DNA from: an uncultured Chlamydiae bacterium | GTDB lineage: Bacteria > Chlamydiota > Chlamydiia > Chlamydiales > JAJFMA01 | DNA length: 36,688 bases | NCBI GenBank assembly: GCA_945957095.1 | Contig: CAMFKD010000002.1 | Span: 1 to 36,688 of the forward strand | Direction: 5' to 3' | Part shown: positions 13,015-19,867 of the stretch, piece after piece | Layout of the letters: each line of letters opens with the position of its first letter | Numbering within the stretch: position 1 is the stretch's first letter | Notes under the pieces: model-generated | Seen by the model: the letters and a program-made list of their open reading frames with translations, nothing else | The model's database searches: none | Told to the model about the DNA's origin: nothing | Made by a program: the position numbers and the translations under genes

Positions 13015-14037
13015 CTATCTTGTAACGCAATTAAATTCTTCTTCAAATTGCCTAATCGTTTTTAGAATTAATTCCCATGAGGGAATCTCTCTGAAAAGCA
13101 TGGACTCCATCTGTAAGTAATCTCTTTGAAGTTCCTTCAAAACATGAGAAGGAGGAATAAGTTTTAAAGTTCCTCTTCTAGCCGTGCCATAGTTTGCCCA
13201 ACTTGATGCAAAATAAACGCTTTTGTGATTGGCTACTCTTTCAAGTAAGAAAGACTCTTCAAGGGCTTTTTCCTTTATCGGAGAGTTGAGTAATCGGAAA
13301 AAATCGTAAAAGTGCCTGGAAATGCGTGAAGGAATTCTTTTATCTGCAGGTAAATGAACATATTGATGCAGGATAGTCGCTTTCTCCCAAAACGTTCTTT
13401 CGACATTCAGTACACGAACCTTGGTTTCCGTCTCGTGGATTTTTTCCCTTAAAGCTTCTTTGGTATAGCTATGAATGATATGGTCGCTAACAGGCCAATG
13501 TTCTGATCTTGCACCCATCTCTATTTTCACAATGGGGCGGATATAGTCCGCGTTTGATTTCTTGCTTTGGTATTCAAATAATAACGTTTGGGAATCAGGG
13601 TTATCTGAATCGGAAAAAAGTTGCCACCCCTTGTTGTTTCCAAGTTCTGCACTGATCGCGGTCGTTAGCTCATGTAACATGTCGTTTTGTACATAGTTAG
13701 CGCAAGCTTGGGAGAGATTTTCAATAATGAGATTTTGCTTCTTCTTGGAGGGTGCGTTTTCGGGATTGTTGGAAGTTCCAAAACCGAAAAACTCTCGTTC
13801 AATGGAGAGATCAATATCTTCGGAAAAACGATCAATCAATCTGTATACTTTTGAAAGAGAAGTCCCTCCCTTAAAGGTAAGATAAGGTCTCACTTTTTCT
13901 AATGAAAACAACCTTCCTAAAATCCATACAACCCAAAAGTCTTTTTCAATAATTTCAAAAGGCATGTTTTGGATGTCGGCAGCTGTTTGAAAGAAAAGTT
14001 CTCGCTCATCTTGAGTGAAAAGGTGGATTTCATTCAT
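13015..14037 (-). CDS. abiEii: AbiEii/AbiGii-family nucleotidyltransferase toxin (type IV toxin-antitoxin / abortive infection)
   Basis: The N-terminus is FEIIEKDFWVVWILGRL. The NTase motif is TFKGGTSLSKVY...RFSEDIDLSI. 340 aa, AT-rich relative to flanking genes. Confidence 0.9.
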   Translation of the reverse strand: MNEIHLFTQDERELFFQTAADIQNMPFEIIEKDFWVVWILGRLFSLEKVRPYLTFKGGTSLSKVYRLIDRFSEDIDLSIEREFFGFGTSNNPENAPSKKKQNLIIENLSQACANYVQNDMLHELTTAISAELGNNKGWQLFSDSDNPDSQTLLFEYQSKKSNADYIRPIVKIEMGARSEHWPVSDHIIHSYTKEALREKIHETETKVRVLNVERTFWEKATILHQYVHLPADKRIPSRISRHFYDFFRLLNSPIKEKALEESFLLERVANHKSVYFASSWANYGTARRGTLKLIPPSHVLKELQRDYLQMESMLFREIPSWELILKTIRQFEEEFNCVTR

Positions 14038-14642
14038 GGCTTAAGCTCCATTATGTCAAAAACAAGAGCTCGTATCCAGGCTGGAGCAAATTTCATGTTT
14101 TTTTTAATTTCCTCTTTAGGTGAGTCTTTGAGGAGTTTTGAAATTTGTATGCGTGCTTTTTGATCGATGTGATCTTTTCCTAAATTTTTCAAAGCTTGGA
14201 TTAATAGTCCTTCCCTGGTTCCAGCGGAAAGCATGTTTTTCTTTGTCGTTTTTTTGAAGACTATTTCTTGATTGCCAATCTTGACTTTTTTGGAAGCAGC
14301 TTCAGTTAGAAATATAATTCGACCAGGAACTTGTGTGGAAAGGCCAACTAAATTCGCTGCATGAGCACCTGCTGGTTGAATTAGTACTCCGTCTTTTTCT
14401 GCAATCGCCTTTGCTACTTCGTTCAAATCGGGAGGAATAACGCCTAGTGTATCGTGTTTTTTAGGATAATCATAGAGCCCCCTAGCAAGTCTTCGTATGA
14501 ATTTTTGTTTTTCAAGTTGTGATAATGCTTTCCTAATGGAGGCATCACTTCCTAGGTCCGAAAAATGCATTGGCGTAAAGCACCAGCCAGGGCCATGCTC
14601 GATGATTCTATTCTTGATTGTTGTTTCAGTGCTATGACGCAT
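14034..14642 (-). CDS. abiEi: AbiEi-family antitoxin / transcriptional regulator (DUF6088-like)
   Basis: ATG at 14642 (MRHSTETTIKNRIIEHGPGWCFTPMHFSDLGS...IRRLARGLYDYPK). The stop overlaps the abiEii start as ATGA (14034-14037). The listed TTG at 14696 would run through operator IR1. Confidence 0.85.
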   Translation of the reverse strand: MRHSTETTIKNRIIEHGPGWCFTPMHFSDLGSDASIRKALSQLEKQKFIRRLARGLYDYPKKHDTLGVIPPDLNEVAKAIAEKDGVLIQPAGAHAANLVGLSTQVPGRIIFLTEAASKKVKIGNQEIVFKKTTKKNMLSAGTREGLLIQALKNLGKDHIDQKARIQISKLLKDSPKEEIKKNMKFAPAWIRALVFDIMELKP

Positions 14643-14660
14643 TCTGACCAGCCTCTGTTT

Positions 14661-14740
14661 TTCACAAAAACTAGCATGTTTTTGTGAAATTAGCAATCAA
14701 AAACCTTAGATTTCACAAAAAGAGACTGTTTTTTGTGAAA
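14661..14740 (-). promoter_or_regulatory. Two tandem inverted-repeat operators upstream of abiEi
   Basis: IR1 is 14661-14688 (ttcacaaaaa-N8-tttttgtgaa). IR2 is 14711-14740 (tttcacaaaaa-N7-ttttttgtgaaa). They lie 19-100 nt upstream of ATG 14642. Paired inverted repeats bound by AbiEi are the described autoregulatory architecture for AbiE. Confidence 0.6.
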
Positions 14741-14861
14741 AATGCTTGTCCTCAGTTGGCCAACATCTTGTTGGCTAAATGGGTAAGAAATCGCAGAGTT
14801 TTACTGCAGTTTAATCCAGTCTACTGCGTAAAATTTGCGTAATTGAGCTTTACGCAGCGGG

Positions 14862-14977
14862 ATTTTTTGGCGTGAATTTGAAGTTGTATATTACTAAAAA
14901 CAAAAGGCTTCAGTCGTAAAACTGAAGCCTTGAAATTGATTGGAGGTGGAGAGACGCATTCAGAACTTTTGATTGGG
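14862..14977 (-). repeat. att-like junction: copy of the ssrA downstream flank and terminator hairpin, the 13-nt ssrA 3' core, and an island arm
   Basis: 14862-14953 matches 19373-19465 at about 85% over ~92 nt by eye. The match includes the hairpin aaggcttcagt-N6-actgaagcctt and the core tggaggtggagag (14941-14953). 14954-14977 (acgcattcagaacttttgattggg) matches 17904-17927. Confidence 0.75.
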
Positions 14978-14995
14978 CGCAAATTATCGAAAATT

Positions 14996-18530: not shown

Positions 18531-18588
18531 GCCGTTTCATGAATTTGCTTAGCGAGCCCGTACCCGATTTTTAATGATGCTGTCAGTT

Positions 18589-19284
18589 TTAATTCTTTTT
18601 GAACATTGATAGGATATGCCATTGTAGTATTTCAGCATAAATCTGAGTATATCCCAATTTTTCTATTTTCTCTGTCAATTGCTCTGGCAGAAAAGCGTAG
18701 TGTATTAATCCCTTTTCTGGGCCGTCTTGAGGTACATAGGTTTGCTTATCTAAGAATTTTAAGGTACAAGGAATTCCGCCGTGGGAGTCCTCATACAGGC
18801 CGCCTCCAAGATCTTCGAGATCAAACGAGTTAAAGTTCGCAGTCTTCACGATAAATAAGCCACCATGCTTCAGGATCCGCGTGATCTCTGCAAAAAGCTT
18901 TTCTATATTCGGTAACGTGTTGTGATTCAATGATTGGAATGCAATGACTGCATCCAATGAGCTGTTTTCAAATGGCAATGCCTGGTACATATCCTGCTCG
19001 AGGGTGCGAACAGATACCTGAGCTTCTTGTGCTTGTACTTTTATCTTTTCGATGCCCTCAATGGAGATTTCCAATGCATGCATGGTCTTCCCCTGTTTTG
19101 CCAGAGCGACAGCAATGGTCCCATCGCCAGCACCAAGATCAAGTACAGTTTGGACCCTATCCTGCTTAAAAAGCTCCAGCATCTTTTGAGGGATGTCGGC
19201 CTTGAAATACTCATCTACGCTGTCATTTTTCCACACATCATCATAGCTTTGTCGCTTCGAAACAGTCTCTTTACTTTTAGCCAT
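18589..19284 (-). CDS. Class I SAM-dependent methyltransferase (small-molecule type fold)
   Basis: ATG at 19284 is preceded by AGGAAA. Motif I is VLDLGAGDGTIAVALA and the post-I acidic residue is in HALEIS. The listed start at 19488 reads through the ssrA terminator and ssrA 3' end and is rejected. Confidence 0.85.
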   Translation of the reverse strand: MAKSKETVSKRQSYDDVWKNDSVDEYFKADIPQKMLELFKQDRVQTVLDLGAGDGTIAVALAKQGKTMHALEISIEGIEKIKVQAQEAQVSVRTLEQDMYQALPFENSSLDAVIAFQSLNHNTLPNIEKLFAEITRILKHGGLFIVKTANFNSFDLEDLGGGLYEDSHGGIPCTLKFLDKQTYVPQDGPEKGLIHYAFLPEQLTEKIEKLGYTQIYAEILQWHILSMFKKN

Positions 19285-19407
19285 TTTCAATTTTCCTAGT
19301 CTGACGTCAACAACGTTACAGTTTTCAGGACAGTATAGCATAAAAATCTCAAAAACCAAGAAAGTTTCGCTGAATTTTTTGGCGTGAATTTTGTATTGCG
19401 TATCACT

Positions 19408-19444
19408 AAAAACGAAAGGCTTCAGTCGTGAAACTGAAGCCTTT
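19408..19444 (-). terminator. Rho-independent terminator of ssrA
   Basis: On the minus strand: aaaggcttcagt, loop ttcacg, actgaagccttt, followed by cgTTTTTag. It begins 9 nt after the tmRNA 3' end. Confidence 0.75.
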
Positions 19445-19452
19445 ACTTTGAT

Positions 19453-19867
19453 TGGAGGTGGAGAGAGTCGAACTCTCGTCCTCGGCAAACTACGTATTGC
19501 CCACTACATGCTTAGTGTTCTGAATATAAGATCAACCTCGATGCAGAACACGCCACTGAGGCCAATCCGCTTCATTTGATCTCGAAGAGTAACCCTAGAA
19601 GCTGTCGGATCCTCTCTTCACATCAAGATTGATAACAATAGTAACCAGCGTCCTTGATCTAACCCTGGGCTATCGGGTCGCCTATAACTGTTAGGTTCTA
19701 GGCAGCCAGCAATTCTCGGCCAGCTTCAGATTCTTCACCTGCAGCAAACCAGAATGCTTGTGTTTGTTCTTTGGCATTTATTGCCGTATCGGTTTTTTTA
19801 GGAGGCCAACCGATATCCTCCGCATGCGTTCAATAGTTCATTTCCAAGTCGAAGCCAGTACACCCCC
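19453..19867 (-). ncRNA. ssrA: tmRNA (SsrA), about 415 nt, CCA not encoded
   Basis: On the minus strand the 5' end reads GGGGGTGTACTGGCTTCGAC and the 3' end reads GGACGAGAGTTCGACTCTCTCCACCTCCA. The 7-bp acceptor stem GGGGGTG/CACCTCC includes a G3:U wobble, and the T-arm is GAGAG-TTCGACT-CTCTC. The PK1 region resembles E. coli (GCATGCGGAGG...GGTTGGCCTCCTAAAAAAACC). A tag reading frame ends in LLAA-TAG (19775-19698). Confidence 0.92.

Follow-up and report, generated by a model that had tools for sequence, protein, structure and literature searches.

Small gene cassettes without a linked recombinase gene adjoin the 3' end of the tmRNA gene ssrA in environmental Chlamydiae

The window analyzed here is a stretch of 36,688 nt from an uncultured Chlamydiae bacterium (contig CAMFKD010000002.1) that carries an intact ssrA gene for transfer-messenger RNA (tmRNA). 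Directly downstream of this gene lie two blocks of accessory genes, designated here cassettes A and B, that are bounded by copies of the last 13 nt of ssrA (the core) and possess no recombinase gene of their own. Each block ends in a junction of the same build, in which an arm and a short spacer precede the core, and junctions of this kind recur in other chlamydial genomes. With moderate confidence, we attribute this arrangement to an unlinked recombinase that has inserted small non-autonomous cassettes, one after another and site-specifically, at the 3' end of ssrA. A tmRNA gene is a known target of genomic islands; we found no description of ssrA-linked cassettes in Chlamydiae in the searchable literature. 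The sequence covered comprises the 36.7-kb window and loci of 3-21 kb from its relatives, which are referred to by L numbers.

The window ssrA gene does not encode the CCA end, possesses the G3:U70 acceptor pair, and specifies the tag peptide AKEQTQAFWFAAGEESEAGRELLAA; a promoter scan placed a promoter of the extended -10 type at 19907-19879. Its 3' terminus, CTCTCCACCTCCA, comprises the 3' half of the T-stem, the 3' strand of the acceptor stem, and the discriminator base. The last 13 nt (19453-19465, read as TGGAGGTGGAGAG on the plus strand) are the recombination core. Exact copies of TGGAGGTGGAGAG start at 14941, 17891, 19453, and 21194, with about 0.001 exact copies expected by chance; a preliminary description of this DNA had listed the first three and missed the fourth. 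Those at 17891 and 14941 are direct repeats of the ssrA 3' end in the same orientation and mark distal boundaries, and the 3' end of the target is reconstituted at the proximal junction, where an intact full-length tmRNA with acceptor pairing is encoded. Segments A and B so delimited measure 1549 and 2937 nt, respectively, in line with the earlier estimates of ~1.55 and ~2.9 kb. Since CCA is absent, the copied segments derive from DNA and not from mature RNA.

The window arm, TTCAGAACTTTTGAYTGG, is found exactly at 14959 and 17909 and with two mismatches at 21300 (0.09 copies expected); besides these, the window holds no further arm-plus-core copies. On the ssrA strand, junction 2 reads ...GAACTTTCTCCCAGTCAAAAGTTCTGA-ACGGGA-CTCTCCACCTCCA, and three-frame translation of its arm yields SPSQKF and a stop codon, which is the end of the rhuM pseudogene of cassette A. 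At junction 1, only ~25-30 nt of the arm are kept, followed on the same strand by ATGCGT and the core, and a tblastn search with an intact RhuM protein (P0303) revealed no RhuM-like coding sequence nearby. The "24-nt arm" that had been noticed beside the cores at 14941 and 17891 is indeed present at both; it corresponds to the last ~30 nt of rhuM plus the 6-nt spacer and, as detailed below, belongs to a family-wide junction and not to this island in particular.

The terminator of ssrA is duplicated as well. A direct repeat of 98 nt (14857-14954 versus 19369-19466; 86% identity including the core) had been estimated by eye at ~80 nt and ~85%, and a terminator scan predicted both copies as intrinsic terminators. 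Over the 85 nt downstream of the core the copies are 84% identical to each other, and each is 71-86% identical to the flanks of other species. We attempted to single out one copy as native by its identity to these flanks or the extent of its homology; this was abandoned, as both fall into the same range and the copy on the AbiE side belongs to the AbiE cassette and moves with it. Several independent metagenome assemblies of the organism break their contigs at 17801 and at 19333-19398, the latter within the 98-nt repeat; the break at 17801 lies 90 nt beyond the second core and could be caused by a repeat elsewhere in the genome or by population heterogeneity.

The last 25 nt of the window ssrA recur in the representative genomes of 17 species, the majority labelled as metagenome-assembled genomes of environmental Chlamydiae. 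A junction profile (arm, spacer, and core) built from seven junctions was run with nhmmer over all fetched loci at a cut-off of E<0.01. It recovered 22 sites in 10 chlamydial genomes, 20 of them in nine genomes other than that of the window: two in the window, one each in L010, L011, L013, L017, and L025, three each in L023 and L026, four in L055, and five in L059. All 22 sites lie downstream of an RNA gene and share its strand; this gene is ssrA or, in L023, that for tRNA-Tyr. The arm consensus, ..GAACTTTCTCCCARTCAAAAGTTCTGA (~30 nt), holds a T-loop-like GTTCNGA box, and the spacer consensus is ATGCRT. The arm motif AGTTCTGA resembles the T-loop region AGTTCGA of ssrA, and the two may, judging from this likeness, share a recombinase-binding box. 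Six of the 22 junctions end a whole or near-whole rhuM gene and 16 follow other genes with an arm of at most ~30-45 nt; rhuM remnants of intermediate length were found beside none of them. The junctions delimit cassettes of 0.6-3.5 kb, many of which open with a terminator, and most cores directly precede a terminator hairpin of the type of the host's own ssrA terminator. Cassettes of 0.6-1.4 kb with a single small open reading frame (ORF) in L059 and L055 keep the complete arm, spacer, and core. In L055, the array has the order [terminator, AbiEi, AbiEii, 252 amino acids (aa)] [149 aa, rhuM] [SET] [NYN] [97 aa], and in L059 it reads [76 aa, 122 aa] [109 aa] [rhuM], with at least two more units.

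The array of L023 separates the constituents of the junction. There, the same arm and the ATGCRT spacer are joined at two junctions to CCAGCCGCCCCCA, the 13-nt 3' end of the adjacent tRNA-Tyr gene, and the 13-mer of the third junction is degenerate. A repeat of 120 nt (85% identity), made up of the tRNA-Tyr terminator and flank, stands on either side of the 7.3-kb array. Since the same arm and spacer accompany the tRNA-Tyr 13-mer in L023, the arm is a constituent of the element and the core derives from the target. The ssrA and tRNA-Tyr cores follow the common pattern CNNNCCNCCNCCA. At junctions without flanking homology (core 2 of the window, the internal L023 sites, and position 9250 of L059) the shared sequence still extends precisely from the end of the spacer to the discriminator base. 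These exact 13-mer boundaries, together with the dependence of the core on the target, argue for site-specific recombination within the 13-mer.

Two related loci depart from this pattern. L017 contains ssrA 3' fragments of ~28-60 nt in both orientations (1671-1775 and 4323-4450) around bidirectional terminators adjoining ssrA, an arrangement more complex than that of the window and suggestive of inverted insertions or rearrangements. In L022 (1530-1616, window orientation), a second terminator copy with the first 6 nt of the core and without an arm bounds a unit of TetR and FAD-monooxygenase genes, apparently a different kind of element that uses the same hotspot.

We searched for a recombinase gene that might serve these arrays. 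Recombinase, integrase, or transposase domains were detected in none of the 30 window ORFs (Pfam, E<=0.01 or 0.001), which extends the earlier remark that the window has no integrase. Likewise, no recombinase was found among 40 ssrA-flanking ORFs of the 17 relatives, in the L023 array, in the small ORFs of the L055 and L059 cassettes, or, from precomputed Pfam annotations, within ±10 kb of eleven rhuM loci that included intact rhuM arrays. RhuM itself is unlikely to be a recombinase, given its distribution as defence-island cargo: the RhuM family is widespread in defence islands, is a candidate toxin family, and is typical island cargo (PMC3710099), and PADLOC lists it as PDC-S05. On plasmids, RhuM is ordinary cargo that in some records adjoins type I restriction-modification genes, and its relatives on viral contigs (~60% identity) have no tRNA gene nearby. 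By sequence it has no relative in the PDB, and its AlphaFold model is poor (predicted local distance difference test score of 44). Neither core plus arm nor arm plus spacer had a match in viral contigs, and the junction plus terminator had none in the plasmid collection.

Comparison of cassettes with chromosomal neighbours reveals a marked discrepancy in divergence. The window segment 14954-13009 (core 1, terminator, flank, AbiEi, and AbiEii) is 91.8% identical at the nucleotide level over 1947 nt to positions 6270-8216 of L055, and the AbiE proteins of the pair are 93% identical, versus 68% nucleotide and 63% amino acid identity for ileS. In the L055 array, it directly follows ssrA and is closed by an arm and a degenerate core; its window counterpart occupies the distal position, beyond which no further unit is recognizable. 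The RhuM proteins of L055 and L059 are 83% identical (ileS, 74%), and the methyltransferase of the window shares 77% of its amino acids with the product of the gene directly downstream of ssrA in L015; as a comparator for the latter, ileS is 64% identical between the window and L022, whose ssrA 3' region is identical to that of L015. These values point to recent horizontal exchange of at least the AbiE cassette. The preliminary description had placed AbiE outside the system, behind a "native-looking terminator"; since the AbiE block is 92% identical to an ssrA-adjacent block of a distant relative, this terminator is the left end of a cassette that has probably been exchanged horizontally.

According to the mechanism that we favour, the ssrA 3' end would be the attachment site for a family of non-autonomous cassettes circulating among environmental Chlamydiae. 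Each cassette, in circular form, would carry one attachment module consisting of the arm, the spacer, a 13-nt sequence identical to the target, and, in most cases, a terminator hairpin. The 13-mer of the cassette would then be crossed with that of the ssrA end, or with a displaced copy of it, by a recombinase whose gene resides elsewhere in the genome or on a helper element. After insertion, the terminator of the cassette would sit right behind ssrA, so that the gene would stay intact and terminated; arm, spacer, and core of the cassette would come to lie at its far side, and repeated insertions would build a co-oriented array. Conjectural in this scheme are the circular form of the cassette, the crossover position, and both the existence and the type of the recombinase.

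Several points weigh against it. We identified no recombinase and observed neither an excised circle nor an empty site. An integrase could lie farther off in the same island, since only 8-21 kb around each related ssrA were covered. The array may be a fossil: contigs of the organism from seven samples share the same layout, the five that were compared by BLAST are 100% identical to the window, and none of the contigs from the seven samples shows an empty site within the species. In principle, every arm could be the stump of a deleted rhuM, given its homology to the 3' end of that gene. A decayed ssrA fragment upstream of the intact gene (21192-21326, described below) misfits simple downstream accretion, and no degenerate core, arm, or terminator marks a left boundary, older boundaries within 6726-13009 being unmarked.

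In a competing explanation, each segment would descend from an autonomous, integrase-bearing island or prophage that had rhuM as its last gene, integrated separately, and later lost its integrase and most of rhuM. The state of rhuM speaks for such decay: the window copy is internally deleted, and translations revealed a stop codon in L023, a frameshift in L025, and an internal deletion in L026. Moreover, homology links the arm to the final ~30 nt of rhuM, the family is typical cargo of islands and defence loci, and accretion at tRNA and tmRNA genes that leaves degenerate remnants is documented, e.g., in Prochlorococcus (10.1101/2020.12.28.424599). However, neither an integrase nor a fragment of one was found beside any of the 22 junctions of the 10 genomes, intact-rhuM arrays included, and the single-ORF cassettes of 0.6-1.4 kb retain their complete junctions. 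The lengths of the stumps are bimodal and not graded, and decay would require 16 independent deletions that all halted ~30 nt from the junction. We therefore regard decay of autonomous islands as a serious but rather unlikely origin. The phrase "fixed, decayed islands" in the preliminary description holds in its first part, as the layout is fixed in the population sampled; loss of an integrase is not the simplest reading, because arrays with intact rhuM also have no recombinase within 10 kb.

The flanking repeats invite yet another explanation, namely that circular or linear DNA carrying the core, terminator, and flank (100-250 nt) inserts behind ssrA by a RecA-dependent Campbell-type crossover and needs no dedicated recombinase. 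Cassettes that adjoin the RNA gene are indeed bracketed by direct repeats of terminator and flank of 40-150 nt with 79-86% identity (window, L010, L011, L022, L023, and L055), no integrase was found, and Chlamydiaceae are reported to swap chromosomal DNA readily by homologous recombination (PMC8278220). Yet many junctions share just the exact 13-mer with their neighbours and no extended homology, the two window copies are only 84-86% identical, and the occurrence of the same arm and spacer on a different 13-mer at tRNA-Tyr is not expected from homologous exchange; we consider this model improbable. Even less can be said for the view that core and arm are unrelated to DNA insertion and only look like the ssrA end, being a dispersed generic repeat or an element of regulation or RNA processing. 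The units do stand at the 3' ends of gene blocks, and a terminator often comes next, which would suit an element that marks transcript ends. However, every copy is found on one side only of ssrA or tRNA-Tyr, in the orientation of that gene, the 13-mer changes with the adjacent RNA gene, and the window contains no copy elsewhere. Folded as single-stranded DNA, three of four copies were no better than shuffled sequence and no consistent fold emerged; in the 22-junction alignment, conservation sits in sequence and not in structure, and Rfam yielded no match at the junction sites. The delimited blocks are, in addition, compositionally foreign and differ between species, and we judge a generic element to be very improbable.

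Satellites, integrative mobilizable elements, and cis-mobilizable elements (CIMEs) are flanked by attachment sites, have no recombinase gene of their own, and accrete in tandem at tRNA-type sites. The chlamydial cassettes resemble them in having recombination sites on both sides and no recombinase gene; they differ in that they comprise one to three genes, occur in far greater number per array, and had no helper or cognate integrase within the window or the 3-21-kb loci of the relatives. With islands targeted to tRNA or tmRNA genes, they share the ssrA 3' end as target, the reconstituted gene, a displaced fragment at the far boundary, tandem arrays, and AT-richer accessory, toxin, or defence cargo. 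Unlike such islands, the chlamydial units have no linked integrase in 10 genomes, are 0.6-3.5 kb in size, and carry one conserved arm and spacer and mostly a replacement terminator. Sublocations of integration sites within tRNA and tmRNA genes are treated by Williams (2002, as cited in 10.1101/2020.12.28.424599). Islands formed by the tycheposons of Prochlorococcus lie beside tRNA genes and the tmRNA gene, and newcomers push older elements outward, leaving partial tRNA copies and degenerate remnants scattered (10.1101/2020.12.28.424599). Accretionary growth of islands at tRNA and tmRNA genes, with partial copies of the RNA gene left behind, is thus a general phenomenon known from that study, and the chlamydial arrays are alike in this respect. 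Tycheposons, however, possess genes for a tyrosine recombinase and for replication, and their remnants include integrase fragments (10.1101/2020.12.28.424599); neither a tyrosine recombinase nor replication or primase-helicase domains were found in the window or the related arrays, which have instead a single conserved ~50-nt junction at every boundary. What differs is the host phylum, this junction, the very small units, the replacement terminator, and the re-targeting to tRNA-Tyr with the same arm and no linked recombinase.

Integrons provide a further parallel: small co-oriented cassettes follow one another, each closed by a recombination site, at one fixed insertion point, and the cargo is rich in toxin-antitoxin, acetyltransferase, and unknown genes. 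In contrast to integrons, no intI gene stands by the insertion point, the neighbours of ssrA being the genes for a major facilitator superfamily (MFS) transporter and a methyltransferase in the window and ileS, a glycosyltransferase, and others in the relatives. The chlamydial site is a conserved linear sequence and not a folded imperfect palindrome of the attC type, the cargo occurs in both orientations with its own promoters and operators, and the counterpart of attI is the end of an RNA gene. We put forward only tentatively that the arrays represent an integron-like cassette system without a linked integrase. Cassettes of one to three genes, equipped with a ~50-nt arm-spacer-core site and a replacement terminator, would be shuttled into the 3' end of ssrA or tRNA-Tyr by a recombinase encoded elsewhere; the resulting arrays of defence and toxin genes would be exchanged even between lineages whose ileS identity is as low as 63%. 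The resident ssrA, situated between the cores at 21194 and 19453, would in principle be movable as a unit.

Chlamydiae are obligate intracellular bacteria, and their routes of gene exchange are poorly understood. A conserved ssrA junction would reveal which genes (AbiE, Fic, RhuM, GNATs, and methyltransferases) move between lineages and would offer a handle on the rate of this traffic, as in the 92%-identical cassette set against the 68%-identical ileS, and on the enzyme. An unlinked recombinase could be identified by profiling the junction phylogenetically against recombinase families, and it could then serve as a tool for site-specific integration in organisms that resist genetic engineering. 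Should the units be mere deletion remnants, the locus would be an ordinary, unusually tidy tmRNA island graveyard.

The fourth core copy belongs to the decayed ssrA fragment, which sits upstream of intact ssrA, beyond an MFS gene. On the ssrA strand, the fragment is preceded at a distance of 43 nt by an arm-like box (21300-21326; 21192-21326 overall), and intact ssrA and the MFS gene lie between two direct cores (21194 and 19453). Possibly, an older ssrA copy beside ileS suffered disruption or deletion, and the present one either came with the MFS-ssrA unit or was kept within it. No other ssrA pieces are present in the window, none of the relatives shows the upstream arrangement, and their ssrA promoter regions are too diverged to trace the site of an upstream insertion. 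The interval between ssrA and ileS measures 5.9 kb in the window and contains the MFS gene, the ssrA fragment, a PNP-like gene, an amidase gene, a second MFS gene, and a hypothetical gene, of which only the last is shared, with L011. No close relative of the first MFS protein was found among Chlamydiae; self matches aside, the best homologues reach 52-58% identity, and the few with a name come from outside this phylum (Legionella, Methanoperedens, and others). The tetranucleotide distance of the upstream accessory block is 0.27, compared to a null of 0.16±0.01.

Of the 17 related loci, 11 have ssrA and ileS as divergently oriented neighbours, 75-2000 nt apart, and in L055 and L059 (Rhabdochlamydiaceae-type) ileS is a few genes away; the order ileS-HAD-lepB is kept in L007, and L020 shows ileS-HAD. 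The ileS side is syntenic, and the genes downstream of ssrA differ in every related species, their products including GNAT, TetR, FAD monooxygenase, chloramphenicol-phosphotransferase-like, SDR, MGMT, Schlafen/AlbA, AbiE, and methyltransferase proteins. A candidate distal flank is the PIN-PhoH gene, which in L055 and L056 lies 14 kb downstream of ssrA with its relative orientation preserved; only AbiE and rhuM are common to the interval between it and ssrA in the window and in L055/L056. By synteny with L055 alone, the variable zone would extend from 6726 to 25644, framed by PIN-PhoH and ileS, and recognizable junctions survive only in its part nearest to ssrA. The earlier delimitation of the island zone to 13015-19465 was too narrow, as variable DNA, with the fragment at 21192-21326, lies on both sides of ssrA. 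The window also encodes a CT021-family protein, consistent with its assignment to the environmental Chlamydiae. Between ssrA and PIN-PhoH, two tandem AvrB_AvrC-like paralogues (6726-8893), resembling type III effectors, have no counterpart in L055. The coordinates of all features are compiled in Table 1.

Table 1. Features of the ssrA region in the window.
Feature	Position	Strand	Remarks and evidence
PIN-PhoH, candidate conserved distal flank	5346..6725	+	82% aa identity to L055/L056 gene
AbiE cassette	13009..14940	-	Terminator 14904-14931; flank with operator-like inverted repeats 14658-14742; PADLOC AbiEi/AbiEii
AbiEii	13015-14037	-	Pfam, PADLOC
AbiEi/DUF6088	14034-14696	-	Pfam, PADLOC
Junction 1	14941..14993	-	Arm stump 14960-14993, spacer ACGCAT 14954-14959, core 14941-14953; nhmmer E=1.3e-14
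Fic, cassette B	15106-16455	+	Pfam; antisense to ssrA
DUF5677, cassette B	16431-17282	+	Pfam; antisense to ssrA
GNAT, cassette B	17306-17782	+	Pfam; antisense to ssrA
Junction 2	17891..17944	-	Arm 17910-17944 (final rhuM codons and stop), spacer 17904-17909, core 17891-17903; nhmmer E=7e-15; 22-junction alignment
rhuM pseudogene, cassette A	17910..18490	-	Pfam Virulence_RhuM; three-frame translation; tblastn with intact RhuM P0303
S-adenosylmethionine-dependent methyltransferase, cassette A cargo	18589..19287	-	Pfam Methyltransf_25/11
Cassette A left end	19369..19452	-	Terminator hairpin 19415-19444 and ~55 nt of flank; duplicates ssrA terminator region
ssrA (tmRNA), intact	19453..19867	-	ARAGORN; Rfam RF00023, 135 bits, full length
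MFS transporter, accessory	19952..21117	+	Pfam MFS_1; absent from every related locus
Decayed ssrA 3' fragment	21192..21256	-	~65 nt, 4-nt T-loop deletion, 86% to resident ssrA
Upstream accessory block: PNP_UDP-like (weak match), amidase, second MFS	21373..24692	+	Pfam; absent from relatives
ileS, conserved flank on ssrA 5' side	25800..28913	+	Synteny with related loci

On the minus strand, ssrA is followed by cassette A (its terminator copy, the methyltransferase gene, and the rhuM pseudogene), cassette B (GNAT, DUF5677, and Fic), and the AbiE cassette (terminator, AbiEi, and AbiEii), the distal arm and core of which are missing. Pfam and PADLOC upheld all these gene calls of the preliminary description, and its view of ssrA as a hotspot of serial, co-oriented, site-specific insertions with cores at the junctions agrees with the data presented above. 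Its further claim of foreign cargo, largely of the toxin and defence type, was borne out by a composition check: the tetranucleotide distances of A, B, and AbiE to the backbone (0.41, 0.26, and 0.42) lie beyond the length-matched nulls (0.24±0.02, 0.17±0.01, and 0.20±0.02, respectively), and their GC contents are 0.40-0.46, compared to ~0.50 for the backbone. Within the cargo of cassette B (15106..17782), where PADLOC gave weak matches to SoFic and PDC-S04, GC ranges from 0.50 down to 0.35.

The rhuM pseudogene has its N-terminal piece in another frame, has lost its middle part, and retains 134 intact C-terminal codons (17910-18314). In L023, L025, L050, L052, and L054, rhuM was called as two ORFs. 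We dismissed the notion that all chlamydial rhuM genes are pseudogenes, which had arisen from a C-terminal query; a full-length query retrieved more than 100 intact proteins of ~359 aa, the named ones from Chlamydiales. Repeated inactivation of rhuM would fit a toxic gene.

The region beyond AbiEii (12540-13009) is the place where the distal end of the AbiE cassette was lost. Homology to the AbiE cassette of L055 reaches just 6 nt beyond the stop codon of AbiEii, and that to L007 ends at 12983; an ORF of 120 codons (12646-13008) was called there by gene finders and has no family. Directly upstream of AbiEi (14658-14742), two 33-nt units, TTTCACAAAAA...TTTTTGTGAAA, form an inverted repeat with 85% identity that is kept with the cassette in L055 and is probably an autoregulatory operator of the AbiE module. 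In cassette B, GGCCGTAT occurs in six exact copies in both orientations within 14996-15136 of the window (0.46 expected). These copies span the promoter and start of the Fic gene, whose ATG lies at 15106 and whose N-terminal region precedes the Fic domain, and they probably constitute an operator or iteron array for the Fic protein.

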